This document shows, piece by piece, positions 22,475 through 60,063 of a stretch of DNA of 64,000 bases. Made by a program: the position numbers and the translations under genes. Each line of letters starts with the position of its first letter. Position 1 is the first letter of the stretch. The notes under the pieces are model-generated. The model searched no databases. It was not told the origin of the DNA and saw nothing but the letters and a program-made list of their open reading frames with translations. The stretch comes from Candidatus Kapaibacterium sp. (GTDB lineage Bacteria; Bacteroidota; Ignavibacteria; Kapaibacteriales; UBA7675), in NCBI GenBank assembly GCA_028284775.1, contig JANQRB010000044.1:65342-129341 (forward strand), read 5' to 3'.

Positions 22475-22492
22475 AACAGCGTCGCTGTTTTT
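22475..22492 (+). terminator. Weak terminator-like hairpin (AACAGC-GTC-GCTGTT + TTT) downstream of HK2
   Basis: 6-bp stem, 3-nt loop, followed by tttta. Marginal stability; listed only as a possibility. Confidence 0.2.
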
Positions 22493-22683
22493 AGGGTGAT
22501 CTCATCGCTCCAGTCGATGAGTATCCGACCGAAGTGGAGAATCGGATGCTGGAAATCCACCATTGTCCCACAATGAATATTGAGCCTTCGGCCATTCTTC
22601 ATTGTATGGCATCGTCCTTGGACGTAATTTTTCCGTCAACCACTGGAACCTCCGACGCTGATCACAATCAGGAGAAGGACTCG

Positions 22684-38201: not shown

Positions 38202-38231
38202 AAACCATCTTGCAGTTTTTTGGCTTGAAAT

Positions 38232-38271
38232 CAGCAGCCTCTTCGTTGGAAGGGGCTGCTGGTTCTTTTTT
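38232..38271 (+). terminator. Rho-independent terminator of the 984-aa gene
   Basis: cagcagcc-tcttcgttggaagg-ggctgctg hairpin (8-bp outer stem plus 4-bp inner stem), followed by gttctttttt. Confidence 0.8.
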
Positions 38272-38759
38272 GATCTGTAGCTACTTAAGCGGTGAAGCGG
38301 GAAAGATCAATTGTATTCGAACAAACTCAGGTCTAACGTAACACTATCATCATTCCCTGTTGAAGCTGCTGCTTAGCAAAGTTGTCTGGAACACACTGTC
38401 TTGCAGAAGGCAACATATGGCTGATTTCACACCAATGCCAGGTTGACTGTGTTTGACCGATTCTGAAATCGGGAAATCCATTTCAAACCACATCCATGTT
38501 AGAATCGGCACACTTATGTAGTATATGAGTACAGATATACACTAAAGATTGCTTTTGAATCTGCGCGATTCTACCTTAAAACTACTGCCCGATCCTCACA
38601 ATTTGCTACTACGGCACAACGCTGCCATGTATCCCCGTGAGTGAGTTGTTTTTGATCGATAACACAGATTAAACATTGGGAGCGGTATCGTTTTTTTGGA
38701 AGCGCAGCCATGCCGTACACCTGAGTATTAAGACTTTGCCACGCTAATTGGAGTCTGTT

Positions 38760-41597: not shown

Positions 41598-41667
41598 GAA
41601 CAACACGCCGTTGCCTTGATAGTGTTAAAAGCCGCCAACGCTGTATGCTATGAATGCGCCGGATAGA

Positions 41668-41727
41668 GGAAACATCACCCTTGGAATTTCACGATTAGTG
41701 CGTGAAGAAAGGGTGATGTTTCTTTTT
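41668..41727 (+). terminator. Putative terminator: 12-bp stem (GAAACATCACCC/GGGTGATGTTTC) with a large loop, followed by TTTTT
   Basis: Perfect 12-bp inverted repeat 41669-41680 / 41711-41722 followed by ctttttata. The ~30-nt loop is unusual for a simple terminator. Confidence 0.45.
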
Positions 41728-41952
41728 ATATTCCGGCCTGCACTTCATAATCTTTTGCTCTGAGATAGCAAAAGCATATCAGGTTATACGAGTTAACAGA
41801 TTCAATATTCAGCCTTACTGAGAGCGGATGCCTTCAGCGGAAAGAGATGCTGATGCTTTGGAATGAGCTAAGCAGAAAGAACTGTTACGTCCCGCCACGG
41901 ATACGAAGCTCTGCAAGTTTCCTCAAGCAGAGGAATTCTATGACTGCCTGAT

Positions 41953-44073: not shown

Positions 44074-44423
44074 AGTTCCTCTCAAGTTCAATTTGAGCTT
44101 AGAAAAAGAGCTGTGCACGTAAGCTTGCCGGAAGATTCTTGAGGATTCGCCAATGTAGGATGTTTCATGCTTTTCTCCAACTTTGGCTGACTGCCGGCGG
44201 CTAGTTTGAAAGCGACGCAGTCTTAATCTACAATGGACCAGTCTGTTCAAGGGTAGTCTCCCGGATCCGGATGTAGGCAGACGGACCGGGCTTTGGCATT
44301 TGATTTCTGCAGCACTTTCCGATTGCGAACTTCTTTAAGGCGGTGATTGCAACAATTATTGCGATTCTACGACCTTTGAACGGACCGACATCATAATACA
44401 CTCAATCAAAATGGCAGGACACT

Positions 44424-45812
44424 ATGACGGAATTGCTGCAGGACCTCCAATCGATCGAATTGTTCAGCAAGCTACCGCCGGAACAACTGAAGTGGCTCGT
44501 GGAAAAGTCGGAATTGCGCGGATTTGATGTGGGGGATATCATGTTCAATATCGGCGATCCGATCGACAACATGGGAGTGATCCTGGAGGGAGCATTTGCG
44601 CTTAAATTCAAGCAGGGCGATCAATTCAAGGAGTTCGCGCAATCAGAAAAGGGCAGCATCACCGGCAAGCTGCCATATTCGCGCGCTAAAGTAGCGTCGG
44701 CCCTGGCCGTGGCGATTGAGCCGGCGCGGGTGCTCATTATGCACGAACGCCATCTGCCGGAGATGATCCGCAGTCAGCACGAAATGACCGAAGCCCTGGT
44801 TCACACGATGCTGACGCGCATCCGCGACTTCACTAAGTCGCAGCAGATGAACGAAAAGCTGATGGCTCTCGGCAAACTTTCGGCCGGATTGGCGCACGAG
44901 CTGAATAATCCTTCGTCAGCAGTCGTCCGCAGCGCCGGCGAGCTCAAAAAGCACCTGGCATTGGTACCGGAAAAATTCAAGCGCGTGATTTCCATCCGGC
45001 TGGACAACAGCCAAATCGACATCCTGAACCGGATTTTGTTCAGCAGAGTTCAGCAAGGCATCGCTGAGGGCATGAGCCTGATGGAGCGCAGTGAACGCGA
45101 AGAAGAGCTTACAGACTGGTTGGATGATCATGAGGTTGACAATTCCGACGGCATCGCAGAGACCCTGACGGATTTTGCTTTTAATACCGACGATCTCGAG
45201 GCGATTCGCGAAGCGACAACTGATGAGTATCTCGACGACGCCGTTGCCTGGCTGGAAGACGTCCTCACAACCGAAAAGCTGGTGCAGGAAATTCAAGACG
45301 CCTCGAAACGCATCGCCGACCTTGTAAAATCCGTCAAAACCTACACTCACATGGATCAGGCACCCGACAAACAGAAGATCGACATTCGCAAGGGAATCGA
45401 AAGCACGCTGGTCATGCTGAATCACAAGGCGCGGCGAAAGAACATCACCTTGCAATGCGAGCTGCCGGATGATTTGCCTCTCATCAACGCCTTTCCCAGC
45501 GAGCTGAACCAGGTATGGACCAACCTGATCGACAATGCCATCGATGCGGTGGATCAGGACGGCACCCTTACGCTGCGCGCGCGCCGGGAACGCGAATTCG
45601 TGATGATAGACATCATCGACGATGGCAAGGGTATTCCGGAAGAAATTCAATCACGGATCTTCGAACCGTTTTTCACGACGAAACCGCAGGGACAGGGCAC
45701 CGGCCTGGGGCTCGACATTGTCCAGCGTATCATACAGCATCACAATGCCGATATCAAAGTTGAATCACAGCCGGGAGAGACGAAATTCAAATTGTGCTTT
45801 CCGATGGAGTAG
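44424..45812 (+). CDS. Orphan histidine kinase with N-terminal cyclic-nucleotide-binding (cNMP/CAP-effector) domain
   Basis: ATG 44424 (GGCAGGA 5 nt upstream). cNMP-binding-like N-terminus (FSKLPPEQLKWLVEKSELRGFDVGDIMFNIGDP...). HisKA H-box LSAGLAHELNNPSSAV. HATPase N/G1/G2 boxes (LIDNAIDAV, DDGKGIP, GTGLGLDIV). No adjacent response regulator. Confidence 0.85.
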   Translation: MTELLQDLQSIELFSKLPPEQLKWLVEKSELRGFDVGDIMFNIGDPIDNMGVILEGAFALKFKQGDQFKEFAQSEKGSITGKLPYSRAKVASALAVAIEPARVLIMHERHLPEMIRSQHEMTEALVHTMLTRIRDFTKSQQMNEKLMALGKLSAGLAHELNNPSSAVVRSAGELKKHLALVPEKFKRVISIRLDNSQIDILNRILFSRVQQGIAEGMSLMERSEREEELTDWLDDHEVDNSDGIAETLTDFAFNTDDLEAIREATTDEYLDDAVAWLEDVLTTEKLVQEIQDASKRIADLVKSVKTYTHMDQAPDKQKIDIRKGIESTLVMLNHKARRKNITLQCELPDDLPLINAFPSELNQVWTNLIDNAIDAVDQDGTLTLRARREREFVMIDIIDDGKGIPEEIQSRIFEPFFTTKPQGQGTGLGLDIVQRIIQHHNADIKVESQPGETKFKLCFPME

Positions 45813-47339
45813 GGCAGGTTTTTTTGATTAAGAATTAAGCTTATGCTGCACAGAAGGCAACATCAAAACGCCGGGATCCAGGTGGCATCACGGCCGGAAT
45901 TAACACCTTAATTGTTTTGCTTTTCGATGGGATGATAAGTAGACATGGAGGAGTCCTCCGTCTGCTGTCATACGCGCCACTATAATTGCAGACAAGGGCC
46001 AGAAGAGAAATTTGCAAAATCAGGCTAAAGCAAACTGTAAGGTAAACGGATAGGCTTACGGTCATTCACTATCGAGCGCCGCTCGCCATCGGTAGCATGC
46101 TTGTCGATCCTGATTGACTTCGCGGTGACAGGACGTTAAAGTGACCGTTAGCCTGGTTGAACAGCCCGTTGAGTATTTTTGTCGTATAGCGGATGTTTTC
46201 ACGGCGGTTTGAAGGACAAGTATTTGTATTGTTGTAGCAAATCCGTACGGGGTTTAGCAATCGAGACTGAATGTTTAGTGCAGTGGTGCTGATTAATGGG
46301 TGAGTTGGCGGTGCTGTGGTATGGCTTGGTCTGGCTGCGGATTTCTGGAGGTGGTGGAGGGGAGGCACGCCGCAGGCGAGGTTTATGTGAGGAGATCTGT
46401 TAATTCGACAACTATTATTACGACACTCAGCCTAAAATCCTCAGCCCCTCACAAGTTCACCATCTCACACACCACTCCACCAGACCATCCATACAATCTT
46501 CCCACCCGCCCGTCCTGCGACCAGAAACGTAGCCGCGGTCAATGATCGGCAGCACATTTCTTGTGAAAATGCGTTTAAGACACCGGCGATCAACCATACT
46601 ATCGGCCGACATCGTCAGATCTTCCTACAAGAGCTCCGCAGTGTATACTCCCTAAGCCGGACCTTCCCGCTCAACATTTTACTACTGCTCGGCCAAATAG
46701 AGCGACATAGTTGGACTCATTTGCATAACAACTCTCTCATGAAATGCATCCGACTCATGGCGGATATCGATACGCGGTTCTTCTGCAAAAATAATTTCGC
46801 AGAGGCAGTCCCATGGGCCAAACCCATGTCTCTGCCCCGCAACTCGAATCACCGCAATTCACTGCGGTCAATGTTTTGCGGCCGAACTGTAACACTGACG
46901 CGGCTTCTGTATCATTATGCCGCTTCGAATGCTGGCGACGATGCACTCCAAGAGAATAATCTATGGATCTCCGGTGTCGATTTATGAGTACTTTTGCGGC
47001 AGTGCCCCACTCTCAGGTCGGAGCCGTTCAAACGATTTCCGGCGCTCAATTGGAAGAGGATGCACTCGGAATTTCCGGGACAGCTGCTCCCGCTGATATT
47101 GCCGGTGGAATTCAACGGCAGATAAGTCCGAGACAAATGTGCTACCCGCGATTCAAAACCGCGGCGCTCATCCGGCTGTCGGAAGGAACTGGCAAGGTAG
47201 GGGCAGAACTTGCCGAATCGTTGACAAGAACGACATTCGCAAAATTGTGTTCAAATTCTATGCGTCTGGCGGTAAGCTGATTTGTGACAAAGCCTAATCA
47301 CGAGGGCACCTGCCGCTTTTAGACAATTCTAGGTATGCT

Positions 47340-50300
47340 ATGCGAGGCAAAATTTCGCAATTCCTTCATGCGATGGCCCCTCCGGCCGATACCAAAGGGT
47401 CTACACTCCGACGCTTACCACTCCTGCTGGTCGTTCTGCTTGCCCTCCATCAGCTTCAGGCACAGGAGTTCGTTGCTAATGTAGGCCAATGGCCGGAGCA
47501 GGTTCTCTTCCGCACGCATGCATGTCAGCCGGAGCTTTGGATCACTGAGCAGGGCTTCGTGACCGACCTCCGTAATGAAAAATTGGGGTCAGCCGCTGCA
47601 ATGCACTATTCTTTTGTTGCCGGCAGATTTCAATCCGCAGAAGGACAGCAGCCTCTTCCCGGCCGGTATAATTATCTGCAGGGCGACCGGGTTCGAGGGC
47701 TCAGCCCCCGCTATCGGCGTGTACTCCTGCGAAATGTTTATCCTGACATCGACATGGTCTGGTATTTTGAAGAAGGCAAAGCGCGCTACGATCTTCTTGT
47801 CCATCCGGGCGCCAATCCCTCCTCAATCAGGATGAATATTACCGGCGCAGCGACAGCCGGCGTCACCTTGGCGGGTGATCTGCAGCTTGCCAGCGAAGCC
47901 GGCACTTTGCAGCAGCGCGGATTACGCGCCTATCAGCTTGATGCCAATCGCAATCAGCTGGAAATCAAGTGCTGCTTCAAGATTGATGAGTCCCGCTCGC
48001 CCATAACCGTTGCTTTCGAATGCGGTGATTATGATAAGAAGCGTACGCTTGTCATCGATCCACTGGTGTACAGCAGCTATCTCGGCGGCGCCGATCGCGA
48101 CGAAATATTGGCAATGTCAATCGACAGCCAGGGCTATACTTATGTGGCGGGAGTGACGAACTCGGCGCAATTTCCGACAGTACCCGGCTCCTACGATACC
48201 GATGGTAAAGGTGACCGCTCGGCTTTTGTCAGCAAGCTGAGTCAAGACGGGTCAACGCTGATATGGTCCACCTTTCTCGGCGGCGGCGCGGACGATCAGG
48301 CCAATGCCATTGCTCTGGGTCCTGACAATGATGTTTTTGTCGCCGGAATGACAAAATCGACTGATTTTCCATCGACGGCACGCTTCGGCAGGGAACTGGA
48401 AAGATCCATTGCCTTTGTTGCGCGCTTAAGCGCCGATGGCGGCAGCCTACGCTACGGCGTGCTCTTTGGCGGCGAGAAAGATGATGTGATTAGCGCTGTG
48501 ACAGTTGATCCTTCCGGTAATGCCTATGTAACCGGCAGCACCAGCTCTGATGAGTATTTCCCTCTTCGCAATGCCTTCGACTCAGACTACAACGGCGGCA
48601 TCGATGCCTTTCTCCTGGCACTTAACCCCGCCGGCGATGCCTTGCTTTTTGCGAGTTATCTGGGCGGCAACGGTCACGATGCAGGGCAGGATGTTTCACT
48701 CTCCGCCGAGGGCAGCGTCATCCTTTGCGGAAACACGGAATCGGAAAACTTTCCCGCTACTGTGGGTACCCCGATCAATGATTCTGATGCTTTTCTCGCC
48801 GTTTTCGATCCGGATGGTTCACGCCGCCTTATCCGCCTCTTTGGAGGTGAGAAGGATGATGTCCCGCTTGCACTTATCGAGGGCAAGGACAAGGACATCT
48901 ATGTGGCCGGCTATACCGCTTCCGATGATTTTCCCGTGACGCCGGGCAGCTATGGGCAGAACCCGGTCGGCAAAGACGACGCCTTTGTTGCACGTATTGA
49001 TCGTGCAGGTGAAATCCTATTTGCGCGGCGTTTGGGCGGAATCGAGCGTGACTACGCGACGGCCATCGACCTGGACAAAAGCGGAGGCATCTTCCTAAGC
49101 GGCGCAACGGAATCGTCGTCGTTTCCGATAAGCGATAATGCACCCTGGCCTGATTGGCGGGGCGGGCGAGATGCCTTTGTGGCACATCTGCACCCCGACA
49201 GCAGCGCCCTGCTTTTCGCCACATTTATTGGCGGCAGCGACGACGACGAGGCTGTGGCAGTTGCTGTTGACGACCAGAGCAATATTTATGTCGCCGGCAG
49301 CAGTGAATCCGACGACTTTCCCACAACAGATAATGTCTTGTTGCCGCTTTTTCAGCAAGACCGGGACGGCTTCATCACCAAGTTCAGCATTGACGCCGTC
49401 GCACGACGGCCGCTCTTGCGTGTAAGCGCCGCCGATTTGGATTTTGGCACTGTGTCCCTTGGTGAAAAGCTTGTTGAGCGAGTAGCAATCTCGAATGTTG
49501 GCAATGCACCGGCATTGTTGCAAAAATTGTCATTCAGCGACAATGACGAAAATGCTTTCAGCGATATCTTCGGCAGCGAACTGCCCATCACTATCGAGCC
49601 GGGAACCGAGTACAGCGCTGCTTTTGGCTTTCATCCGCTTTCAGAAGGACCAAAAACAGCTGCGTTGACAATCAGCGGCACTGCGAATCCGATTCTCCTG
49701 CGTCTGAAAGGCAGTGCAACAGAGGATGATGGAAGCAGGGATTCGGCTATTGTGGCCCTACCGGCTCTCGAGGCGGCTTCCGGCGACACGGTCCTTCTGC
49801 CCCTGCGCATACTCCGTATTCCGGCATCTTTCGATCAGCGTTCCGCGACCGGCTTCAGAGCTGAATTTCATTTCAATGCCAGCCTCTTGACACCGCTCGA
49901 CCCGGCACTCCGTGGACAGATAAACGATGGCAGACAGCACATTGTCATCGAAGGCGTTTACCTGGGCGGTTCCTCTAACGATGTGTTAGCAGAGTTGCCG
50001 ATGATCTGCGGCCTCGGGGATGCCGAACAAAGTGAACTGATTCTGGATTGTTCTTCGATACGATGGGAGGTTGACGGCAGTACTATCGATCAGGCCAATG
50101 TATGCCGCGACGGCAGCTTTCGTTTAACTGACATCTGGCGCTTCCGCGAAGATAGGCTGGTTAACAGCAACAAAGGCAACCTGGCACTGGATATACAGCC
50201 CAATCCGGTTGGCGATGCGGCAACAATTCAGGCAAGGATTTCCTCAGCGCCGGCTCACCTGCGGCTGCACGATGCGCTCGGTCGGCCCCTCATCGACCTG

Positions 50301-50432
50301 AGTGACAGACTGCCGGCAGCGGCTGGAAACCTTCGTTTCACTTTCGTAACTGCCGGCCTGGCCTCCGGCACATATTATCTGCGACTGACCTCCGGAACTT
50401 TTGTCCTGCTACGAGTTATGCAGGTTAAATAG
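47340..50432 (+). CDS. SBBP beta-propeller repeat protein (DUF7948-like N-terminus) with T9SS C-terminal sorting domain
   Basis: ATG 47340. Signal ...LRRLPLLLVVLLALHQLQAQ. SBBP-type repeats (DIYVAGYTASDDFPVTPGSY; NAYVTGSTSSDEYFPLRNAF; NIYVAGSSESDDFPTTDN...). C-terminus LDIQPNPVGDAATIQARIS...GTYYLRLTSGTFVLLRVMQVK matches the T9SS CTD. Confidence 0.85.
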   Translation: MRGKISQFLHAMAPPADTKGSTLRRLPLLLVVLLALHQLQAQEFVANVGQWPEQVLFRTHACQPELWITEQGFVTDLRNEKLGSAAAMHYSFVAGRFQSAEGQQPLPGRYNYLQGDRVRGLSPRYRRVLLRNVYPDIDMVWYFEEGKARYDLLVHPGANPSSIRMNITGAATAGVTLAGDLQLASEAGTLQQRGLRAYQLDANRNQLEIKCCFKIDESRSPITVAFECGDYDKKRTLVIDPLVYSSYLGGADRDEILAMSIDSQGYTYVAGVTNSAQFPTVPGSYDTDGKGDRSAFVSKLSQDGSTLIWSTFLGGGADDQANAIALGPDNDVFVAGMTKSTDFPSTARFGRELERSIAFVARLSADGGSLRYGVLFGGEKDDVISAVTVDPSGNAYVTGSTSSDEYFPLRNAFDSDYNGGIDAFLLALNPAGDALLFASYLGGNGHDAGQDVSLSAEGSVILCGNTESENFPATVGTPINDSDAFLAVFDPDGSRRLIRLFGGEKDDVPLALIEGKDKDIYVAGYTASDDFPVTPGSYGQNPVGKDDAFVARIDRAGEILFARRLGGIERDYATAIDLDKSGGIFLSGATESSSFPISDNAPWPDWRGGRDAFVAHLHPDSSALLFATFIGGSDDDEAVAVAVDDQSNIYVAGSSESDDFPTTDNVLLPLFQQDRDGFITKFSIDAVARRPLLRVSAADLDFGTVSLGEKLVERVAISNVGNAPALLQKLSFSDNDENAFSDIFGSELPITIEPGTEYSAAFGFHPLSEGPKTAALTISGTANPILLRLKGSATEDDGSRDSAIVALPALEAASGDTVLLPLRILRIPASFDQRSATGFRAEFHFNASLLTPLDPALRGQINDGRQHIVIEGVYLGGSSNDVLAELPMICGLGDAEQSELILDCSSIRWEVDGSTIDQANVCRDGSFRLTDIWRFREDRLVNSNKGNLALDIQPNPVGDAATIQARISSAPAHLRLHDALGRPLIDLSDRLPAAAGNLRFTFVTAGLASGTYYLRLTSGTFVLLRVMQVK

Positions 50433-51322
50433 CGGCATTGCATTAATGGCATACGGCGAAGTCCTATCACGCCAAGCGTCATGAATTTGAATTGATGCCA
50501 AGAACAGGCAGCGGTGAATCACCGTTTCATTATCATCAGAATGAACGAAATATCGTTGACAGCGGTACAATGAAGATTGTGGCGGTCTTTAACAATCTTG
50601 CCGCACTTCCATTCCTGAACCGTGTTCTTCACAATGTCGTCGGATCACTGTTTTCAAACCGACCTGCTTTGTTAAAGTCAGAGATCATTCGAAAGAGTTT
50701 ATCTTCTAGCAGTGGCAAATCGGTTTTTTTGTTGTTTCCAGCTTGTTAAGCTCCTTCTTCCCAACAATGTCGATTAACAGCACAAGTCTCGCCAATGTCG
50801 GAGCAGGCAGCAATATAGCCATTCTCTAGGTCGGCAGCAGCATAGTCGTGTTTGAAGCAAGGGCCTTCCGGTCGATATCAGCGGCTGCGCCACGGCATGT
50901 CCCGTCGCACATGGCCTTATAAGCTTCCATAGAATCAGCTATGAACTGCGGACGCCAAGCATCCTGAGCTTGAGGCCCGAGTTAAATTCTGCCGACGGGC
51001 ATCGACAAGGTGACCTCGTCACTTTAGAAAGGTACATTTGCCCCGGCTTTAGGGAATTTTGCAATCGAAGGGAAAGGCGACAGGCGGGCAGTCAGGGAGG
51101 TAAGAACATCATTATCAGCTTAACTCTTAGTGGTGCTTGCGGCGGCATCTACATCCAATCCTAGCTTAAGATCGTCGTTCGACGTCGCCGGCGTTCTATC
51201 CGATGGAATGCTGCGGATTCACTATCGACGGTCGTAGAAAAACTTAAAAGTAAGGGCCTCTTGATCATCGCCGGACCAGCCGCTCTTCGGCCGGAGAACA
51301 TAAGTGTACGAGTTGTTTCCCT

Positions 51323-51859
51323 TCAGCTGGCGGGAAAGCGAATTGTCAGCTCCTCCCGTCCGGCGGCATAACTCGCAGGATAACGACGCAGATCGCTCGT
51401 TACCAGTGGCGAATCGCGCCAGCCGCCGTCGCTGGAAGAGAATTCAGCCCCGTGGCATGGGCATATCATATTGGCGCCGGGTTCGGCCGGCAAATTTACT
51501 TCACAAACCTGGTGCGTACAAAGGGCGGTGACGACCAGAAATTCGCTTTCACTCTTCCGGATGATAATCAATCGCCGGCCGTCGTTAAAGGGTGGTATTG
51601 CGATTTTGATTGCACCGCCAACCGATCCTAGTGCCGGATAGTCACTCAGGAGCAGCGTCGCAGCAGCATCCGGCTGAAGGGCATCGCCGGTAGATGGCCC
51701 GACGATCTTAACGACACGCGGTTCACACGAAGACAGGAGCTGGCCGAGCGCTCCACTGCAACATGCAGTACAGCAAAGCGTTCCTGCGCTGCGCAGAAAC
51801 TCCCGTCGTTGCTGCCTGCGTCTTGCTTGTACCTTTTTCGATTTAGCATTCGTTTGCAT
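51323..51859 (-). CDS. Rieske [2Fe-2S] domain protein with twin-arginine (Tat) signal
   Basis: ATG 51859 with GGAG SD 8 nt upstream. Tat-type motif RRRQQRREFLRSAGTL. Rieske cluster ligands CTHQVCEV ... CPCHGAEF (CxH...CxxH). Confidence 0.85.
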   Translation of the reverse strand: MQTNAKSKKVQARRRQQRREFLRSAGTLCCTACCSGALGQLLSSCEPRVVKIVGPSTGDALQPDAAATLLLSDYPALGSVGGAIKIAIPPFNDGRRLIIIRKSESEFLVVTALCTHQVCEVNLPAEPGANMICPCHGAEFSSSDGGWRDSPLVTSDLRRYPASYAAGREELTIRFPAS

Positions 51860-52115
51860 CGCCTGACTCCGGAACCGTTAAACACTTATTCGCCCGATAA
51901 CTCTGCTCAGCAAGGGTGATACATTTACGGGACGAATGTTACAGGCACACGCTGCAAGTCTCGTCCCTGCCTGAATGTTCGCCTTTTCCCAACGACGGGA
52001 TGTAATGAAGGCGGTCTTCAAAATACCGAGTCGGTCCAGACCCTTAACGCTTGTCGGCAAGTGCAGCAATCATATTTTTTGCAACGAAGATTGCAGTTTG
52101 AGTATTTTTGGTTCT

Positions 52116-54266
52116 ATGTGTCCAAGGTTAAGCACCGCCGTCCTCAGCTGCATCTTTCTTACTTTCAACCTGCTTGACGCCGCCGGCACCGACAGCAGCG
52201 CCCTTTCCTGGCGATACAGCCTGAGCGCTGCCCTGAGCTACAGCAGCCACTCGCCCGCGTTCGGGACTTTCGTGGACGAAGGCATCGAGCTGCCCGCAGA
52301 AGCAGGGATCTTCGATTCGGGCGATGATACGGGCCTCGGTCTATTCTTCGATGGCGCCGCTCAGCTGCATGACCGCCTCTGGCTGGGCTTGGCGCTTGAC
52401 TTTCGCAATGCCGACGGCGACATAAGTACGACCGAAGAAAAGACCTATATCATCCAGGGTGTGCCCACCAGTGGTGTTAACAATCACACTGTCTCATTTA
52501 CAATCCGTTCACTCGGCCTGACGCCCAGTCTGAGTTATGATTTACCCGGCAGCTTGTACCTGCGTGCCGGTCTGCGTCTGGCCTTTGTTATCGACGCTCC
52601 CTTCACACAACGTGAAACGATTCAATCACCGGAGGGGCTTGAATTCCCCAACGGCAGTTCACGACGCGTGCTGAGCGAGGCATCCGCCGGTTTTGATGAT
52701 GTTCAGATTCCCGGCGTCGCCGCTTTGCTGGGGCTGGGTGTTCATCTGCCGCTTAATGAAGCTGGCTCCTTGGGCCTACGGGGGGAGATGCACTATCAGA
52801 CCGATCTGACGAGTATCACCCACGATGTTGAATGGAAGGCTGCCACGCTGGCCCTGGCTTTGGGTATCACAATAACGCCGACTACCTCCATACCTGTCCT
52901 GCGCGACACCATCATCATGCGTGATACTATAATCGACAGGCGCGCCGACATCGAAACGGAGATAACACGGCTGGAAGAGCGAAACAGCAGCACCGAACGT
53001 AAGACGAGCGCCGAGCACATCCGCGAGACCCTGCGCATCACGGAACGCTATCGGCGCAGCGAGCCGAAAAAACCGCCGCTGCTCCTGCCTTCACTGAAGC
53101 TTCGCTTTGCGCTGCCTGATGGTAGTGAAGCGGAAGCGGTAGCCTTGCAGATTCGCCGCCGCCGGGAGAAATTTCGCGCACCGCTGCTGCCATACATCTT
53201 TTTCGCGGAAGGTTCCGATAGCCTGCCACAGCGGTATCGCTCCCAGGGAACCGCCTCGCCCGATGAATTCACCGAGTCTGATCTGGATAGGGTATCGCTG
53301 CCGGGCATGTACCGGGAGCTGCTGAACATCGTTGGCAGTCGATTGCGTCAACGCCCCGGAGCTACCCTCGTCATAACGGGTTGCAATGACGGCGGCCTTT
53401 CTGAAGCAGGCGACAGCGCTTTGTCGCAAAGGCGGGCGGCAGCAGTCCGTGACTTTTTGCGGGATCACTGGCAGATCAACCCCGAGCGCATGCCGCTCCG
53501 GTCGCGCCTGCTGCCGGAACGAGCTTCCTCCTTGCGCCATGCCAGCGGACGCGCCGAAAACCGTCGCGCCGAGCTCAGCTCTGATGATTCCGCCATCCTG
53601 GCTCCGGTTCGTCTGCAGCTAACGAGCTTCGAAGCGAATCCACCCGAGCTTCTATTGTACCCGGAGGTACTGACTACATCACTGTTGAGCCATTGGTCGA
53701 TTGCAGTGACCGCGGGCGATGCGTCGACGCGTCTGATACAACGCTGGGAAGGTGTCGGCAGCTTACCCCCGCTCCTGCGCTGGTCGATCGCTGAGGACAG
53801 CAGCGCCATGCGGCTTGTCCAGGGTGAGGAGCGCATGCAAAGCTTTCTCACGGTACAGGATACAGCGGGTTTCATCGCCATTAGTGACACGGGCAGCATT
53901 CGCTTTCGCCATTCGCAGCGCGACGTCGCGGCGGACGTCGAATTACGGGAGCGCTATTCGCTCCTGTTTTTTGGCTTCGACGATGCGGACCTCAGAACCG
54001 ACCAGCAGGATTATCTGCAAAGCATTCGGCCGGCGTTGCTGCAGGCAGACAGCATAGTAATCAGCGGTACGACGGACAACAGCGGCAGTGTATCTTACAA
54101 TCGGGCTCTTGCTCTGCAACGCGCAGAGAATGTCGCCGACTTGCTCGGTCTGCCGTCCTCGATACCGGTCAGCATCAAGGCGGCAAACGGCAGTCTGTCC
54201 AATGAGCTGCCTGAGGGACGCTGCTATAATCGCAGTGTGAGTATCCTGGTCGACCGAGGCGACTGA
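52116..54266 (+). CDS. Outer-membrane protein with two C-terminal OmpA-like domains
   Basis: Start tentatively at ATG 52116 (MCPRLSTAVLSCIFLTFNLLDAAG, signal-like). The track start 51975 adds 47 residues without a signal peptide. Two OmpA_C-like segments (GRAENRRAELS ; NRALALQRAENVADLL...GRCYNRSVSILV). Confidence 0.7.
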   Translation: MCPRLSTAVLSCIFLTFNLLDAAGTDSSALSWRYSLSAALSYSSHSPAFGTFVDEGIELPAEAGIFDSGDDTGLGLFFDGAAQLHDRLWLGLALDFRNADGDISTTEEKTYIIQGVPTSGVNNHTVSFTIRSLGLTPSLSYDLPGSLYLRAGLRLAFVIDAPFTQRETIQSPEGLEFPNGSSRRVLSEASAGFDDVQIPGVAALLGLGVHLPLNEAGSLGLRGEMHYQTDLTSITHDVEWKAATLALALGITITPTTSIPVLRDTIIMRDTIIDRRADIETEITRLEERNSSTERKTSAEHIRETLRITERYRRSEPKKPPLLLPSLKLRFALPDGSEAEAVALQIRRRREKFRAPLLPYIFFAEGSDSLPQRYRSQGTASPDEFTESDLDRVSLPGMYRELLNIVGSRLRQRPGATLVITGCNDGGLSEAGDSALSQRRAAAVRDFLRDHWQINPERMPLRSRLLPERASSLRHASGRAENRRAELSSDDSAILAPVRLQLTSFEANPPELLLYPEVLTTSLLSHWSIAVTAGDASTRLIQRWEGVGSLPPLLRWSIAEDSSAMRLVQGEERMQSFLTVQDTAGFIAISDTGSIRFRHSQRDVAADVELRERYSLLFFGFDDADLRTDQQDYLQSIRPALLQADSIVISGTTDNSGSVSYNRALALQRAENVADLLGLPSSIPVSIKAANGSLSNELPEGRCYNRSVSILVDRGD

Positions 54267-54276
54267 TTGTCAAGGC

Positions 54277-55272
54277 TCAATCTTTAAGATGCTGCAGTCG
54301 TGCGATCCAGTATTGTTCTTTGTCGCTGCCGGCGGCACGCAGGGCAGCCAGAGACCGCGACTTCAGTTGCAGCGCATCGGCCCGACGACCTTCCTGACCG
54401 GCGCCGAATGCCAATTCTCCCAATAGCTCGCCCTGTAGCTCCCGCCATTGGCCTGATTCCGCCAAAGCAAGCGCGCGTTTCAGTATGCTGCGACTGCTAT
54501 CCGGGTGGCCGAGCTGACGGTGAGCAACGCCAATCTGGCGCAGGCTGCGAACCCGATCCGCCGAGCCGGGCGGCGGCAGGTGCTCCCAGAGACCTAGAAT
54601 GACTTCTTCGATCTTCTGCGCTTTCGCTCCACCGCTTTCCACAAAGCCGTGCATTCGCTGTGATGCGTCGGAGGCCGATTTTGGCACTGTGTTTGCGTTG
54701 CGGGAACTGTCTGTTTGCGCCGCTTCTGCATCCGAAGGCGTCGGTACGTCGGGGATCTGACGCTCCGGCTCGACGGCTGACGGGCTGGGGGCCGGTACCG
54801 CCGCGGGCTGCGAATGTGAAATCGCCTCATCGACGGACTCCGTTTGATGGAAAGAACTGAAATTCTCCGACGGTGTCGCGGTCTGGTCATCACGCGTGGC
54901 GACCGGAAGAGGCGTCTTCTCCGTTGGAGCCGGCAGGACGTCACCAGCGGCGCCGGTATCATCGCCGGGTGCGAGCCATAGCAGCGAGCTGAGAATTATC
55001 ACACCCGCGCCGGCAAACCACAGCCAGAGCGGAGGCCGCCGCCGCTGGATCTGCAGTGCTGCCCGAATGCTTTCTTTAGTCGCAGCGCGATAATCAAGGG
55101 CGCGCGCGTCGCGGGACTGCTGTTCCGCCGTCAGGATTGTTTCCAGTCGCTGAAGGTCATGCAGTTCCTCAGCCAGAGAGCTGTCGTGCATCAGCAAGGC
55201 ATCGAGCTCGGCCTGCTCGGCGGGACTGAGGCTGCCGTCCAAAGCTTTAGCGATTAATTCATCATGTCTCAT
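54277..55272 (-). CDS. Membrane-anchored anti-sigma factor (putative), single TM, periplasmic C-terminal helical domain
   Basis: ATGA start/stop overlap with the upstream ECF sigma gene (55269-55272). N-terminus MRHDELIAKALDGSLSPAEQAELDALL resembles an anti-sigma N-domain. TM helix LWLWFAGAGVIILSSLLWLA. Pro/Ala-rich linker, then a helical C-terminus. Confidence 0.6.
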   Translation of the reverse strand: MRHDELIAKALDGSLSPAEQAELDALLMHDSSLAEELHDLQRLETILTAEQQSRDARALDYRAATKESIRAALQIQRRRPPLWLWFAGAGVIILSSLLWLAPGDDTGAAGDVLPAPTEKTPLPVATRDDQTATPSENFSSFHQTESVDEAISHSQPAAVPAPSPSAVEPERQIPDVPTPSDAEAAQTDSSRNANTVPKSASDASQRMHGFVESGGAKAQKIEEVILGLWEHLPPPGSADRVRSLRQIGVAHRQLGHPDSSRSILKRALALAESGQWRELQGELLGELAFGAGQEGRRADALQLKSRSLAALRAAGSDKEQYWIARLQHLKD

Positions 55273-55826
55273 TCTTCATCTGATAAATAGGGTTGCAGAC
55301 TTGTACGAAGCATTTTCTTGGCGCGATGGATGCGCACTTTCACGAGCGCCATCGAAATATCGAGCCGCTGCGCTATTTCGTGATAGGCAAAGCCATCCCT
55401 GTATTTTAACTCGAAAGCAGCGCGGAACTCCTCCGGGAGTGCGGCGATCGCTTTGTTCAAAGCTTCAGCGAAAAAAATATCCTTATCCGGTCCTCTCTCC
55501 GGAGCCGCGAGTGCATAGCCCGCGTCATCGATGTCGGTCGTCTGCAATTGGTTGCGTACCGACAGCAGACAGTTGTTCCGCGCGATGGTAAACATCCAGC
55601 CGGCAAAGTTGCCTCCCTTGAATTGTTCCGCTTTCTGAAACACCGTCATCAAGGTCGATTGATAGATATCTTCGGCAACCTGCCGGTTCTTCGTCGCTGC
55701 CAGACAGTAGGCATACAACCGCCGATCATAACGCCGGTACAACTCGTCGAAAGCAGCCTCATCCCTCTGTTGTATAAGGGTCAGGAGCGCTTCGTCTGTC
55801 TGACACTGGTACGCCGCTTTGTTCAT
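55269..55826 (-). CDS. ECF-subfamily RNA polymerase sigma-70 factor
   Basis: 185 aa. Region-2-like YRRYDRRLYAYCLAATKNRQVAEDIYQSTLMTVF and a region-4 HTH near the C-terminus (FAYHEIAQRLDISMALVKVRIHRAKKMLR). Confidence 0.85.
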   Translation of the reverse strand: MNKAAYQCQTDEALLTLIQQRDEAAFDELYRRYDRRLYAYCLAATKNRQVAEDIYQSTLMTVFQKAEQFKGGNFAGWMFTIARNNCLLSVRNQLQTTDIDDAGYALAAPERGPDKDIFFAEALNKAIAALPEEFRAAFELKYRDGFAYHEIAQRLDISMALVKVRIHRAKKMLRTSLQPYLSDEE

Positions 55827-55894
55827 TCTTCGCAGTCCGTTTCATTGCTTCGGGGGCAGGAATACACAATATCGGCAATTGTTACAAGGGTATT

Positions 55895-56069
55895 CTTGTG
55901 GATTGAGATTATTTAGGATTGGTCGGGGGTGGTTTGTGGGGCGACCACGGGGGACACGGAGGCACGGGGGACACTTCAGTTGGCGGGCTCTTGTGGATGG
56001 AGATTATTCAGGATTGGTCGGAGGTGGTTTGTGGGGCGACCACGGGGGACACGGAGGCACGGGGGACAT
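55895..56069 (+). repeat. Tandem direct repeat: two ~80-bp G-tract-rich units with 95-bp period in the sigma/heme-cluster divergent intergenic region
   Basis: Unit 1 is 55895-55974 (cttgtggattgagattatttaggattggtcgggggtggtttgtggggcgaccacgggggacacggaggcacgggggacac). Unit 2 is 55990-56069, differing at ~4 positions, with a 15-bp spacer. Each unit has G5/G4/G5/G5 tracts. GGATTGG occurs in each unit and again at ~56141. Confidence 0.9.
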
Positions 56070-56273
56070 TTTAGCGGCTGCGGCTTTGGGTGAAGATGGC
56101 GGTTGCCTGTTAAGAAAAATGGGCGGGACTGTAACAATCGGATTGGATTTACATTCCTGGCGCAAGTTTTATTATTGCTTCGGCGGAATTAACAAATAGC
56201 ATCGCGTGGAGTATTGTGAAGGGTGCTATGTCGGCGGCGGCAATTTTTTCGGATTATTCGGATGCAAAGTTGT

Positions 56274-57518
56274 ATGATTAAACAACAGACCATCAAGGCG
56301 CTGGCATTAAGTCTGGCGATCGTGCTCCTGCCGCACTGCAGTTCAGACGAGGACGGCGGTAGTCCGAGCTCTCCTTCCCTGGAAGATGCCGTGATAATTG
56401 ATCCCGCGGATGCTGCGATCGCGATAGGTGAGCAGCTTCAACTACAGGCCCGGCATGCAGGCGCAGCGGTTGAAGTTCATTGGAAGGTGGCGCAAGGGCC
56501 GGGCAGCATCGACGACAGCGGCGTCTACAGCGCGCCCGCGAGCCTGACGGTTCGTTCGGTAACCGCCACCATTCGGGCCACGATGCAGCGTGACGAGTCG
56601 ATTCGCGGCTTTGCGCAGATTGTCGTCAGCACTAACGAACCCGACCCAAATGACGATCCCGGTACAACGGTCTCCCTGGCAGTACAGCCTGAGTCGGCCG
56701 CGCTCAATCTTAACGAAGAGCTGCAGTGCCAGGCATTTTTCAACGGCCAGCCTGCAAGCGGCGTTTCCTGGGCAGTGACGGAAGGGCCCGGAACGGTCGA
56801 TGCCAATGGACTCTACCGCGCGCCATCCTCAATTGACGCGTCAAAGCTGCGCGCCCTCATCGAGGTCCGTAGCGCGGGATCGCCGCCACTCACGCGCAGC
56901 GTAGAAGTTCAAGTATACAACTACATGCCCGGCACGGTCTGTTTTCAGCGCGACGTGATGCCGATGCTCTTGTCGAACTGCGCTATGAGCGGCTGTCACG
57001 ACGCCAAGACACATGCCGATGGCATAGACCTCTCCAGTTATGAAGCGATGATGCGCTCGCATGAAACGGTACGGCCGTACAATGCGGGAGACAGTGAACT
57101 CTACGAGTCGATCACCGACTTCGGCGATGACGACCTGATGCCGCCGCCGCCCCGCGATCCGTTGTCAAAAGAGCAGATTGCACTGGTCCGACGCTGGATC
57201 AATGAAGGCGCCCCGGACTCGGATTGCGCTCCGCCGGACGGCAGCAACTGCGATACGGTCGATGTCGGCTTCCGTTCTACCATTCAGCCTCTGATGCAAA
57301 GCTATTGCGTCGGCTGCCACAGCAATGCCGCGCCGGCAGACAATCTTGCTCTGGAAAGCTACGAACAGGTCCGCAACTCAGCTCGCGATGGCGGCCTCCT
57401 GGGATCGATCGTCCACGATCCGGCTTACAAAGCCATGCCGTCAAAGGATCTGAAGCTGAACGACTGCCAGATCAAACAGATCCGGGTCTGGATTGCTGCC
57501 GGTACACCGGATAACTAA
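56274..57518 (+). CDS. Lipoprotein with two Ig-like (Big_2-type) domains and two PSCyt1-type (Planctomycete cytochrome c) c-heme-binding modules
   Basis: Start tentatively at ATG 56274 (MIKQQTIKALALSLAIVLLPHCSS); the track start is GTG 56223. Module 1 is FQRDVMPMLLSNCAMSGCHDAK...LMPPPP...WINEGAP (C-x4-CH). Module 2 is FRSTIQPLMQSYCVGCHSNAAP...AMPS...WIAAGTP (canonical CxxCH). Both follow the PSCyt1 pattern F..V.P.L...C..CH...MPP...WI..G. Confidence 0.75.
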   Translation: MIKQQTIKALALSLAIVLLPHCSSDEDGGSPSSPSLEDAVIIDPADAAIAIGEQLQLQARHAGAAVEVHWKVAQGPGSIDDSGVYSAPASLTVRSVTATIRATMQRDESIRGFAQIVVSTNEPDPNDDPGTTVSLAVQPESAALNLNEELQCQAFFNGQPASGVSWAVTEGPGTVDANGLYRAPSSIDASKLRALIEVRSAGSPPLTRSVEVQVYNYMPGTVCFQRDVMPMLLSNCAMSGCHDAKTHADGIDLSSYEAMMRSHETVRPYNAGDSELYESITDFGDDDLMPPPPRDPLSKEQIALVRRWINEGAPDSDCAPPDGSNCDTVDVGFRSTIQPLMQSYCVGCHSNAAPADNLALESYEQVRNSARDGGLLGSIVHDPAYKAMPSKDLKLNDCQIKQIRVWIAAGTPDN

Positions 57519-57753
57519 ATCCTGTCCGCTTCCGCAAGAAGATAATCTCTCTTCGTTTGTCCGTTCCCCCCGACACTTCTTTGCCCGGGCAAAGAATGGC
57601 GTCGGGGGTCGTTTTTTCGGCAATAATTGGCCGGAAGAAAAAATTCATTCCCAGATTGGTCGGGATTGATGAACTTTGCGGTCAGAAAGACCTCCGGCAA
57701 GGACTAGTGCTCAATCGTTCAGTACTATTCACCAGAAAGGAGAAGTTGCGACC

Positions 57754-58281
57754 GTGAAATCCAACAAAGCAGGCAACTGGAGACGATGGATACTTTGGGG
57801 ACTGCTGGCGCTCGTCATTGTCATTCAGCTGATTCCGGTGGAACGCGGTAATCCGCCCGTTGAAACGACCATCGGTGCACCCGAGGCCGTAATGGCTATT
57901 CTGCGCAGCGCCTGTTACGACTGTCATTCCAATGAATCGCATTGGCCCTGGTACAGTTATGTTGCGCCTGTTTCCTGGCTTATTGCGCACGATGTGGAGG
58001 AAGGCCGCGAGCATCTCAACTTTTCGACCTGGAACCGATTCAGCGACAAAGACCGCGTTGAGCTGCGCGAGGAGATATGGGAGGAAGTCGAAGAGGGCGA
58101 AATGCCGCTCGCAATTTATTTGCCATTGCACCCCGAAGCCGAGCTGAGTGAGAGCCAGAAAGCCACGTTACGCAGTTGGGCTCTCGGCAGCGCACACAGT
58201 GGCAACCGGGACGCGCGTCTGGAGCCGAGCCAGGCCCGCAGCGGCGAGGAGCATCAAGACGCAAGCCATGAAACACATTAA
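57754..58281 (+). CDS. Membrane-anchored Haem_bd (PF14376-like) heme-binding domain protein
   Basis: GTG 57754 with AAAGGAGAAG SD ~8 nt upstream (the track ORF starts at TTG 57676). N-terminal TM WRRWILWGLLALVIVIQLIPV. CYDCHSNESHWPWYSYVAPVSWLIAHDVEEGREHLNFSTW matches the Haem_bd signature, including CxxCH. Confidence 0.7.
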   Translation: MKSNKAGNWRRWILWGLLALVIVIQLIPVERGNPPVETTIGAPEAVMAILRSACYDCHSNESHWPWYSYVAPVSWLIAHDVEEGREHLNFSTWNRFSDKDRVELREEIWEEVEEGEMPLAIYLPLHPEAELSESQKATLRSWALGSAHSGNRDARLEPSQARSGEEHQDASHETH

Positions 58282-58401
58282 AAAACACTAGACTTTCGGA
58301 AGGCTTAAGGCCGTTCGGCCCAGGGCCCCTACGGCAAGCTCGAAGATCGTGTTTACCGGTCGCGAAAGGACCGGCATAATTTTCAGGAAAGGATTGTAAC
58401 G

Positions 58402-60063
58402 ATGAAAAAGCCGCTGATAGTTGCACTTGACGACGACCCGCAGGTGCTCAGAGCGATCCGACGCGATCTACGCAATGAATACCGCGAAGAGTATCGCATA
58501 CTTTCCACGACCTCGGCGCGGGAAGCATTGGAGTCCTTGAAAGAGTTGAAGCTGCGTGGCGAGAAAATCGCGCTTTTCATTTCCGACCAGCGGATGCCAG
58601 AAATGGAGGGCGTCGACTATCTGGAGCGGGCCAAGGAGATTTTCCCCGAGGCGCGGCGCGTGCTCCTGACGGCATATTCCGATACGGAAGCGGCCATTAA
58701 AGCGATCAATGACGTGCAGCTCGACTACTATCTGATGAAACCCTGGGATCCGCCGGAAGAAAAATTGTACCCTGTGCTGAACGACCTGCTCGACGAATGG
58801 CAGGCGAGCTACCGGCCGGACTTCGAAGGCATCAAAATCGTAGGCTATCAGTGGTCGCCGCGCTCGCATGGCATTAAGGACTTTCTGGCGGGCAACCTGA
58901 TTCCTTACCTTTGGCTGGATATCGAATCGAATGAGGAAGCACGCCGCTTGATCGACGCTGCCGGCGTGGCGCATAAAGAGTTGCCGGCGGTGTTTTTCGA
59001 GGACGGCAGCCACATGGAGAATCCCACAGCAACCCGGATCGCCGCAAAAATTGGCATGAATGCCCACGCTTCCGACACGATGTACGACGTCGTGATTGTT
59101 GGCGCCGGCCCGGCGGGTCTGGCTGCGGCCGTTTATGGCGCATCGGAAGGCCTCAAAACGCTGCTGGTGGAAAAGCGGGCGCCGGGCGGGCAGGCGGGCA
59201 CAAGTTCGCGCATCGAAAATTACCTCGGCTTCCCGAAAGGTCTGAGCGGCTCGCAGCTCACGCAACGCGCCATCACCCAGGCCACTCGACTGGGGGCGGA
59301 GTTCCTGCTGCCGCAGGAAGTCAAAAGCATCAGCCTGCGCGATAAATACAAAATCATTACACTCGCCGACGGTGCTGAGATCCACGCGCTCAGCGTCATC
59401 ACGACTACAGGCGTGGACTACCGCAAGCTCGCGACCAAGGGCATTGCTGATTTCACCGGGGCGGGCGTTTATTACGGCGCGGCGACGACGGAGGCGGCAG
59501 CCTGCCGCGATAAGGACGTCTATATCGTCGGCGGCGGCAACTCGGCCGGACAGGCTGCCATGTATCTCTCGACATTCGCCAGCAATGTCTACATTCTTAT
59601 CCGCCGCGACTCGTTGAAACACTCGATGTCGCAGTACCTTATAGACCAGATTGCCGGCACAGCCAATATCGTGCTGCAGCCGCATACGGTGGTAGAAGAA
59701 GCTATCGGCAACGGCAACCTGAGCGCCCTGGTGCTGAAAGACCTGAATAGCAATGAATGCCGCAGGGTAGAGGCGGGCTCGCTCTTCATCTTTATCGGCG
59801 CACGCCCCTATACCGAGTGGCTGGAAGCCGATATCATCAAGAATCAGCGCGGCTTTATCGAAACTGGACGCGACCTGATCCGGCATCCGGACTTTAAGAA
59901 AGTCTGGAAACTCGATCGCGAGCCTTTCCTGCTGGAATCGAGCTCGCCCGGCCTCTTTGCCGCCGGCGACGTGCGCGCCGGCGCCATGAACCGCGTCGCT
60001 TCGGCCGTCGGCGAAGGATCGATGGCCATCAAATTTGTCCACGAGTACCTGGCTCAGCTCTGA
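58402..60063 (+). CDS. Response-regulator receiver (REC) domain fused to a thioredoxin-reductase-fold FAD/NAD(P)H flavoprotein that lacks the CxxC redox centre
   Basis: ATG 58402 with AAAGGA SD. REC has LDDD (res 9-12), phosphoacceptor Asp in FISDQRMPEMEG, T in VLLTAY and K in YYLMKPW. The C-terminal ~330 aa have TrxB-like Rossmann motifs (VVIVGAGPAGLAAAVY ; YIVGGGNSAGQAAMYL). TrxB 'CATC' aligns to AATTEAAAC, so there is no CxxC. Confidence 0.85.
   Translation: MKKPLIVALDDDPQVLRAIRRDLRNEYREEYRILSTTSAREALESLKELKLRGEKIALFISDQRMPEMEGVDYLERAKEIFPEARRVLLTAYSDTEAAIKAINDVQLDYYLMKPWDPPEEKLYPVLNDLLDEWQASYRPDFEGIKIVGYQWSPRSHGIKDFLAGNLIPYLWLDIESNEEARRLIDAAGVAHKELPAVFFEDGSHMENPTATRIAAKIGMNAHASDTMYDVVIVGAGPAGLAAAVYGASEGLKTLLVEKRAPGGQAGTSSRIENYLGFPKGLSGSQLTQRAITQATRLGAEFLLPQEVKSISLRDKYKIITLADGAEIHALSVITTTGVDYRKLATKGIADFTGAGVYYGAATTEAAACRDKDVYIVGGGNSAGQAAMYLSTFASNVYILIRRDSLKHSMSQYLIDQIAGTANIVLQPHTVVEEAIGNGNLSALVLKDLNSNECRRVEAGSLFIFIGARPYTEWLEADIIKNQRGFIETGRDLIRHPDFKKVWKLDREPFLLESSSPGLFAAGDVRAGAMNRVASAVGEGSMAIKFVHEYLAQL

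Follow-up and report, generated by a model that had tools for sequence, protein, structure and literature searches.

A stretch of 64,000 nucleotides from Candidatus Kapaibacterium sp. (contig JANQRB010000044.1, positions 65,342 to 129,341), referred to here as the window, encodes a sensor histidine kinase with no response regulator beside it and, further along the same strand, a response regulator with a flavoprotein-type output and no kinase beside it. Does each of these apparent orphans serve a different partner, or do the two genes belong together? The original prediction, made from the letters of the window, had proposed that they may form a cognate pair. Based on the analyses described below, the kinase and the regulator very likely make up a single conserved two-component system, whose two genes were pulled 12.6 kb apart by the insertion of unrelated genes. 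The evidence is comparative rather than biochemical; it covers the domain composition of both proteins, their intact catalytic and phospho-acceptor residues, the family-wide loss of cysteines in the regulator and the adjacency of the two genes in relatives.

Gene adjacency in relatives

To assess the genomic context from the kinase side, a scan with the family alignment was carried out on one genome per species, and 27 loci with a full-length kinase homologue were retrieved. Of these, 25 encode a full-length regulator homologue, comprising the receiver (REC), thioredoxin (Trx)-fold and thioredoxin reductase (TrxR)-like domains (49-65% identity), whose gene immediately adjoins the kinase gene on the same strand, with a gap of 3-120 nt. 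Going by the titles of their records, the loci represent Bacteroidota, Gemmatimonadota, Chloroflexota, Actinomycetota, Cyanobacteria, Verrucomicrobia and Caballeronia. Bacteroidota-type genomes have the order kinase-regulator, and the others regulator-kinase. Direct look-ups found the pair together in three more cases, i.e., Calditrichia (4-nt overlap), Balneola (170 nt apart) and Aquimarina (one aldo-keto reductase gene in between).

From the regulator side, a metagenome scan with the regulator alignment gave 80 loci, 12 of which have too little flanking sequence, leaving 68 that are informative. A kinase gene lies next to the regulator gene on the same strand in 63 of the 80 loci, and a further locus (L163), in which it lies at 440 nt, brings the count to 64 of the 68. 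Over their full length, the window kinase is 32-56% identical, and the window regulator 49-71% identical, to their counterparts in the paired loci and in the sister genome described below. Since the relatives of the two genes are adjacent in more than 90% of the loci examined, we take the window kinase and regulator to be partners. The genomic context, which the original prediction had named as a test of its inference, thus favours the cognate pair on both sides (25/27 and 64/68). As a two-gene unit, the pair is conserved in at least seven major bacterial lineages.

One additional gene recurs beside the pair. A Cys/His-rich zf-UBP protein of approximately 84 aa is encoded there in nine genome and look-up loci (L089 4516-4767, L088 10242-10526, L007, L010, L012, L013, L016, L018 and L025) and in 19 of the 80 metagenome loci (L090-L169), across phyla. 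When the flanking open reading frames (ORFs) of 26 loci were clustered, none other than zf-UBP was shared across phyla. The window holds no copy of this gene by tblastn. The zf-UBP protein is a candidate partner or substrate of the system.

The kinase

The original prediction had described a cyclic nucleotide-binding (CNB) domain N-terminal to HisKA/HATPase, and Pfam and the family profile bear out this arrangement (Table 1). The product is a soluble protein and has no hydrophobic segments. Among the best 120 of 8000 scored homologues, most are 459-482 aa long, with identities of 47-57% and E ≤ 3e-145; judged by these sequences, this is a tight family.

Pfam cNMP_binding matches residues 34-117 of the kinase with 27.0 bits, slightly under the gathering score of 27.5. 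Nevertheless, the assignment of the CNB fold is sound, because a profile of the N-terminal 142 residues built from 12 family members matches the CNB domains of PKA-R, PKG and CRP (best E = 8e-15), and a precomputed PF00027 match is present in most kinase homologues.

The phospho-accepting His158 and its H-box are unchanged across 24 aligned homologues. The Pfam HisKA model reaches 20.6 bits against a cut-off of 26.9 and covers helix 1 alone (residues 149-180), and the NCBIfam kinase models match in two separate stretches. The dimerization and histidine phosphotransfer (DHp) domain is not the contiguous two-helix hairpin of the HisKA model, as an insert of four helices lies between helix 1 and helix 2. 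This insert, approximately 70 aa in the model and without a match in Pfam, is conserved family-wide; an invariant W232 lies inside it, and the next helix bears an invariant W276. By its motifs, the kinase appears HisKA-like, but as an atypical variant. The catalytic ATP-binding (CA) domain is recognised by HATPase_c at residues 359-461 (91 bits, cut-off 26.4), and the family invariants N367, D399-x-G401-x-G403, FFTTK and G425-x-G427-x-G429 are all present in the window kinase. In Foldseek, this domain matches ZraS, HK853 and ThkA.

The AlphaFold2 (AF2) model of the kinase (mean pLDDT 82) places a beta-barrel at residues 29-107, a helix at 119-179, the insert at 181-250 and the second long DHp helix at 255-312, followed by the CA domain. 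The C-helix of the CNB domain and DHp helix 1, which bears His158, form one unbroken helix in this model (residues 119-179).

The regulator

The regulator comprises REC (residues 7-118), a glutaredoxin/mycoredoxin-like domain (144-217) and a Pyr_redox_2/TrxR-like domain (228-550). The original prediction of a TrxR-like REC-flavoprotein was right as to the receiver and the fold of the output, and it missed the additional Trx-fold domain. Homologues in Bacteroidota-type relatives are approximately 70% identical. Response_reg matches with 55 bits (cut-off 30.2), and the receiver has the family-invariant acidic pocket D10/D11/D12 together with D62, T90 and K113. The middle domain is detected by TIGR02200 at 1.5e-8 and adopts a thioredoxin fold in the AF2 model of the regulator (mean pLDDT 78), with the topology beta-alpha-beta-alpha-beta-beta-alpha. 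The closest structures to the whole model in Foldseek are AhpF (4o5q, 1hyu) and TrxRs. The FAD and NAD(P)H motifs GAGPAG, GGGNSAGQ and C-terminal AAGDVR are conserved in the family, while the HRRD motif is partly kept (IRRD in the window regulator, VR(G/A/K) elsewhere).

Table 1. Coordinates of the kinase, the regulator, their domains and phospho-acceptor codons, and the interval between the two genes
Feature	Position in the window	Strand	Basis
Sensor histidine kinase (soluble, 462 aa) with CNB-fold, insert-bearing DHp and CA domains	44424..45812	+	ORF, Pfam, NCBIfam
CNB-fold (cNMP_binding-like) beta-barrel, residues ~29-117	44508..44774	+	Pfam, family profile vs PDB, model strands 29-107
Codon of phospho-accepting His158, H-box GLAHELNNP	44895..44897	+	Translation; invariant in alignment
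Helical insert, residues ~181-250, four helices in model, between DHp helices 1 and 2	44964..45173	+	Pfam, NCBIfam, alignment, AF2
CA domain, N/G1/F/G2 boxes intact	45372..45806	+	HATPase_c, alignment, Foldseek
Stretch between kinase and regulator, 12.6 kb, approximately eight genes	45813..58401		Pfam, ORFs
Response regulator of 553 aa (REC, Trx-fold, TrxR-like flavoprotein), output of enzymatic type	58402..60063	+	ORF, Pfam, NCBIfam
Codon of phospho-accepting Asp62, motif (S/A/V)-D-Q-R-M-P	58585..58587	+	Translation; invariant in 30 family members across phyla
Thioredoxin/glutaredoxin-fold domain, residues 144-217, S-P-R-S at CxxC position	58831..59052	+	TIGR02200, model
TrxR-like FAD/NAD(P)H domain, residues 228-552; CxxC replaced by G-A-A-T-T-E-A-A-A-C, GxGxxG kept	59083..60057	+	TIGR01292, alignment to 7aaw

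Absence of both CxxC motifs

In the alignment of the regulator with the TrxR of Bacillus cereus (7aaw; E = 8.6e-48), the redox-active CAVCDG corresponds to GAATTE. The replacement V-Y-Y-G-A-x-x-T-E-A is kept in 30 of 30 aligned family members. A full-library phmmer search with regulator residues 136-553 returned 3021 cluster representatives at E ≤ 1e-30; in the best 150, which were examined, the replacement shows minor variants. CxxC is absent from the TrxR-like domain of all 30 aligned members and all 150 representatives. Likewise, none of the 30 aligned members has a Cys at the CxxC position of the Trx-fold domain, where W-S-x-x-(S/G/T) is found instead, and the window regulator, although it has the fold, carries neither the CxxC nor the CxxS active site of glutaredoxins and mycoredoxins. 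Both motifs are missing in all 150 representatives with the Trx-fold and TrxR-like module.

According to public annotation, the regulator would be a phosphorylation-controlled NADPH thioredoxin-disulfide reductase. Its best sequence and fold matches are indeed genuine TrxRs, both in the alignment to 7aaw and in Foldseek, and SCO7298, its apparent counterpart in Streptomyces coelicolor, goes under the name 'trxB3' and responds to polysulfide and to acid shock with induction (PMC9952706, PMC2631018). Nevertheless, this possibility is scarcely credible and was rejected: the missing CxxC centre, in the window regulator as in every family member examined, already contradicts it, the Trx-fold domain lacks the motif as well, and TIGR01292 (thioredoxin-disulfide reductase) scores 226.2 bits, under its curated cut-off of 343.45. 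Because both dithiol motifs are missing, the dithiol relay of thioredoxin reductase is not available to this protein. Judged by its sequence, the regulator is a flavoprotein of TrxR ancestry, in which 'TrxR' names a fold and not an activity, and the public label 'thioredoxin reductase' is unjustified for the family. The same probably holds for the name 'trxB3' of SCO7298, if this protein is a family member.

Conservation of the phosphorylation sites and proposed mechanism

The surroundings of both phosphorylation sites are unusually conserved across phyla. The conserved stretch of the kinase reads LG-x-LSAGL-x-HELNNP...R, and those of the regulator read DDD-x-x-V...RDLR, LLTAY-x-DT and KPWDPPE, which fits a single specificity class. 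The identity matrices of kinase cores and receivers correlate with r = 0.886 over 26 pairs, a value confounded by phylogeny. Additionally, the residue preceding the phospho-His (A/T/M) is associated, over 86 pairs and with the same confounding by phylogeny, with the residue following the phospho-Asp (Q/Y/H): 70 pairs have A-Q, 11 have T or M with Y or H, and five have other combinations. The window pair shows A-Q, the majority state. A mutual-information scan over the 86 pairs, a co-variation analysis of the kind suggested by the original prediction, gave only signals confounded by phylogeny, which add no independent proof.

From these sequences we infer phosphotransfer between the two proteins, a ligand of the kinase and an enzymatic reaction of the regulator, in the following order. 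The CNB-fold domain of the cytoplasmic kinase would bind a small ligand, perhaps a cyclic nucleotide, and the signal would pass from the C-helix of this domain along the unbroken helix to DHp helix 1. The kinase would autophosphorylate at His158 and, by phosphotransfer from this residue, phosphorylate the regulator at Asp62. The output would not be DNA binding; instead, phosphorylation of the receiver would switch the activity or the assembly state of the Trx-fold and TrxR-like FAD/NAD(P)H module. More likely than a disulfide relay is a direct flow of electrons from NAD(P)H via FAD to an acceptor other than a disulfide, for which small metalloproteins, quinones and other redox partners are candidates.

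One-component relatives

The best 150 of the 3021 representatives differ in their N-termini: 67 carry REC, at least 41 carry CNB, and others have no regulatory domain. In each of the seven CNB-flavoprotein fusions scanned, Pfam cNMP_binding scores 41-60 bits, far above threshold. The Trx-fold and TrxR-like module of the CNB-fused forms is 38-51% identical (E ≤ 1e-85) and, as in the window regulator, has Y-Y-G-A...E-A in place of CxxC and a Cys-less Trx-fold domain. In public annotation, these one-component proteins go by the name 'cyclic nucleotide-binding domain-containing thioredoxin-disulfide reductase'. In the fusions, the sensor is joined to the enzyme, whereas in the window system the sensor is on the kinase and the receiver is on the enzyme. 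In P0241, a representative of 714 aa, a single chain runs from REC through the Trx-fold/TrxR-like module to a canonical cNMP_binding domain (82 bits) at its C-terminal end.

The original prediction had spoken of a domain shuffle of such fusions. At the level of the family, this idea is supported by the 67 REC-bearing and at least 41 CNB-bearing forms; a direct domain transfer is not demonstrated, because the G-x-L-P-Y-S-R signature of the kinase was found in just one fusion examined (P0244). On this comparison, the same enzyme module may answer directly to a CNB domain fused to it or, by way of a receiver, to a CNB-bearing kinase. By virtue of this shared output module, the family offers a clean natural example of one- and two-component solutions to the same regulatory problem.

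Genomic setting of the split pair

The kinase and regulator genes are co-oriented; lying 12.6 kb apart, they cannot share a transcript. Upstream of the kinase lies a divergent gene for a secreted BNR/Sortilin protein (41953-44250, minus strand); downstream, 1.5 kb without a convincing gene precede a gene for a secreted DUF7948/SBBP protein. Haem_bd and DoxX genes flank the regulator upstream and downstream, respectively. The original prediction was correct that neither gene has a two-component partner as its neighbour: no receiver is encoded next to the kinase, and no kinase next to the REC-TrxR-like protein at 58402. The interval encodes DUF7948/SBBP, Rieske, OmpA-like, tetratricopeptide repeat (TPR), extracytoplasmic function (ECF) sigma factor, PSCyt1 cytochrome and Haem_bd proteins, with no two-component protein among them in the Pfam scan. 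The TPR protein, encoded next to the ECF sigma factor, is a possible anti-sigma partner. Searching the window by tblastn, with the kinase core and the REC domain as queries, revealed no additional member of either family.

The closest relative on a long contig, the sister genome GCA_964445695.1, carries a kinase homologue (56% identity) and, at a distance of 15.2 kb on the same strand, a regulator homologue (71%). Its interval is partly collinear with that of the window, with Rieske, secreted Ig/type IX secretion system (T9SS), TPR, ECF sigma factor, PSCyt1 and Haem_bd proteins, and in both genomes the regulator is followed by DoxX, OmpA-like porin and fumarase genes. As the sister genome has the same split, the split is older than the divergence of the two organisms, and both genes have since been kept in this neighbourhood. 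Compared with the sister genome, the window has gained extra blocks upstream of the kinase, made up of kinase genes and genes for secreted proteins; to judge from the two sequences, the region around the kinase accumulates insertions.

Other features of the region were noted. The distance from an upstream YCII gene to the kinase is approximately 640 nt in the sister genome (L082 8964-10001) and approximately 9.6 kb in the window (34284-44250), where the intervening DNA holds three large genes, of which at least two encode secreted/T9SS-type proteins; this longer gap suggests repeated insertion of genes of the secreted-protein type. The 45813-47339 segment that follows the kinase has a GC content of 50%, against 55% window-wide, and an independently assembled Logan contig ends inside it, at approximately 46374. 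No convincing ORF, Rfam family, tRNA or meaningful repeat was found in this segment, nor any similarity to a fetched relative locus by blastn or tblastx.

Around the regulator, the surroundings have a redox/envelope flavour (54277-58281 and 60724-61164, with TPR, ECF sigma, PSCyt1, Haem_bd and DoxX; Rieske at 51323-51859), and this gene set is common to the sister genome and not to other relatives. A 153-aa ORF on the minus strand (60054-60515) overlaps the regulator stop codon by 10 nt; matching no Pfam family and lacking a counterpart in the sister genome, it is perhaps not a gene. The class II fumarase gene (63616-64000, minus strand) runs off the end of the window. Its counterpart in the sister genome (L085 14619-16490) encodes a 623-aa cNMP_binding-fumarase fusion, which would add another CNB-controlled enzyme to the vicinity of the regulator.

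Alternative explanations

Several observations weigh against a working pair in this genome. On the kinase side, two loci have no adjacent regulator (L008, on a contig of 3.6 kb, and L011); on the regulator side, L129, L159 and L167 have flanking sequence on both sides and no kinase, and L130 has just a weak, partial kinase-like match 2.3 kb from the regulator. The two genes are not co-transcribed in the window, so that their co-regulation is only presumed, and a second copy of either family may be present elsewhere in the genome, beyond the visible 64 kb. The full-text literature returned no biochemical evidence for phosphotransfer, ligand binding or enzyme activity of any member. Moreover, three tandem paralogues of 1081, 1084 and 1121 aa, each with Reg_prop repeats, Y_Y_Y and a PF06580 His_kinase domain, are encoded at 15520-25899 on the plus strand, and no response regulator gene adjoins any of them. 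The distance of 12.6 kb without a shared transcript, these three regulator-less kinases and the small minority of relatives without an adjacent partner are what might be expected if the two proteins had been rewired here, each to a different partner, with another kinase, e.g., one of the three Reg_prop/Y_Y_Y kinases, serving the regulator. We consider such a rewiring quite improbable. The kinase keeps all the family-invariant residues of the phosphotransfer site, LSAGLAHELNNP and R169, and the regulator keeps D10-D12, V15, R21, D22, LLTAY (T90) and the KPWDPPEEKLYP motif (K113). The split shared with the sister genome, at the identities given above, implies that the two genes have long been kept together. 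Additionally, PF06580-type kinases are a different class, which normally pairs with LytTR-type regulators. A separate doubt, which also counts against the proposed system, is whether the flavoprotein part is an output at all. As a second sensor, it would let the redox state of FAD tune the phosphorylation or dephosphorylation of the receiver, and the protein would integrate redox status with the ligand signal of the kinase, as a phosphate sink or via protein contacts. Neither domain has a recognisable substrate-handling dithiol, the window holds no conserved enzymatic partner, and the sole recurrent third gene in relatives, the small zf-UBP gene, occurs in a minority of loci, all of which would suit a sensor. 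Nevertheless, we regard this role as unlikely, as the FAD and NAD(P)H motifs are strictly conserved, like those of active enzymes, and the module also occurs without any N-terminal regulatory domain, in forms of approximately 410-430 aa, which suggests an autonomous activity.

The nature of the input is less settled than the partnership of kinase and regulator. When the domain is aligned to PKA and PKG by HMMER, a variable column takes the place of the canonical phosphate-binding Glu and a near-invariant Ala that of the canonical Arg, a further point to be set against the mechanism as proposed. The family has its own invariant cassette residues instead, G81, L83, P84, S86 and R87 (motif G-x-L-P-Y-S-R), shared with P0244 alone among the CNB-flavoprotein fusions examined, and the cNMP_binding score is, as stated, below the Pfam threshold. 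These features would fit a CNB fold that senses another small molecule or serves protein interaction or dimerisation; other bacterial CNB-fold sensors of the CRP/FNR superfamily bind haem, chlorophenols or glutathione. In an alternative register, however, the ten residues from G77 to R87 bring the invariant R87 to the canonical Arg position, the homologue P0083 (G-E-I-S-G-L-L-P-Y-S-R-A) fits the canonical spacing in this register, and the closest solved relatives of the domain are genuine cAMP or cGMP binders. An input other than a cyclic nucleotide is a serious possibility, although not the one towards which we lean. Because the cassette is non-canonical, the ligand is uncertain; from its sequence, the kinase may bind a cyclic nucleotide.

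Significance of the pair

The window pair is a positionally split member of an already catalogued, functionally uncharacterised system, and apart from the split the window copy is ordinary. For the annotation of this genome, two 'orphans' are removed, one signalling pathway is predicted, and the label 'thioredoxin reductase' is flagged as wrong for the regulator. For its output, the system uses a flavoprotein of enzyme type in which both redox dithiols have been lost, and it is a reasonable target for finding a new phosphorylation-controlled redox activity.

A more specific and rather doubtful suggestion is that, throughout this widespread system, a ligand-gated kinase switches a Cys-less TrxR-like flavoenzyme whose substrate is possibly the zf-UBP protein, encoded beside the pair in approximately a quarter of the loci. 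With zf-UBP as its substrate, the enzyme would parallel rubredoxin reductase with rubredoxin. If this suggestion were true, the output of this two-component system would be directly redox-enzymatic, and CNB-fused one-component and two-component versions of the same switch would coexist in nature.

Comparison with known systems

In the full-text literature, no functional study of this system was found, just catalogue entries and expression data. A review of Streptomyces lists SCO7297/SCO7298 as a histidine kinase/response regulator pair, with a regulator of the 'TrxB'-type family in P2CS (PMC9739842), and an archaeal census catalogues the REC-TrxR architecture as a 'Mycobacterium-like combination' (PMC5847659). 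SCO7297 (the kinase) and SCO7298 look like the same system as the window pair: the order is regulator-then-kinase, as in the actinomycete loci L009-L018, and the output is of the TrxB type. The likeness, and with it the presumed orthology, is one of architecture and gene order, and the two Streptomyces genes are adjacent, whereas those of the window are 12.6 kb apart.

Among characterised flavoproteins, AhpF, which is the best Foldseek match, and NTRC resemble the window regulator in combining a Trx-fold domain and a TrxR-like flavoprotein in one chain. In AhpF and NTRC, each of the two parts has a redox-active CxxC, and peroxiredoxins receive the relayed electrons; the window regulator, in contrast, lacks both CxxC motifs and has a receiver domain in addition. 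The ferredoxin-NADP+ reductases of TrxR type, such as YumC of Bacillus subtilis (PDB 3lzw), share the TrxR fold and have neither REC nor a Trx-fold domain. At E = 3e-17, 3lzw is far more distant from the window regulator than the genuine TrxRs are (8.6e-48). These reductases have no CxxC centre, and the acceptor of their electrons is not a disulfide, which is the kind of chemistry that we propose for the window regulator.

As for the mode of control, CheB, PleD/WspR, RpfG and RsbU-type proteins resemble the proposed regulator in that phosphorylation of a receiver controls an enzyme and not transcription, and the window REC resembles receivers of the RpfG/NosR type (NF053512, 114 bits, below its cut-off). 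Unlike in the CheB, PleD, RpfG and RsbU types, the output in the window is a flavin oxidoreductase-type module, which is known just as a catalogued architecture (PMC5847659).

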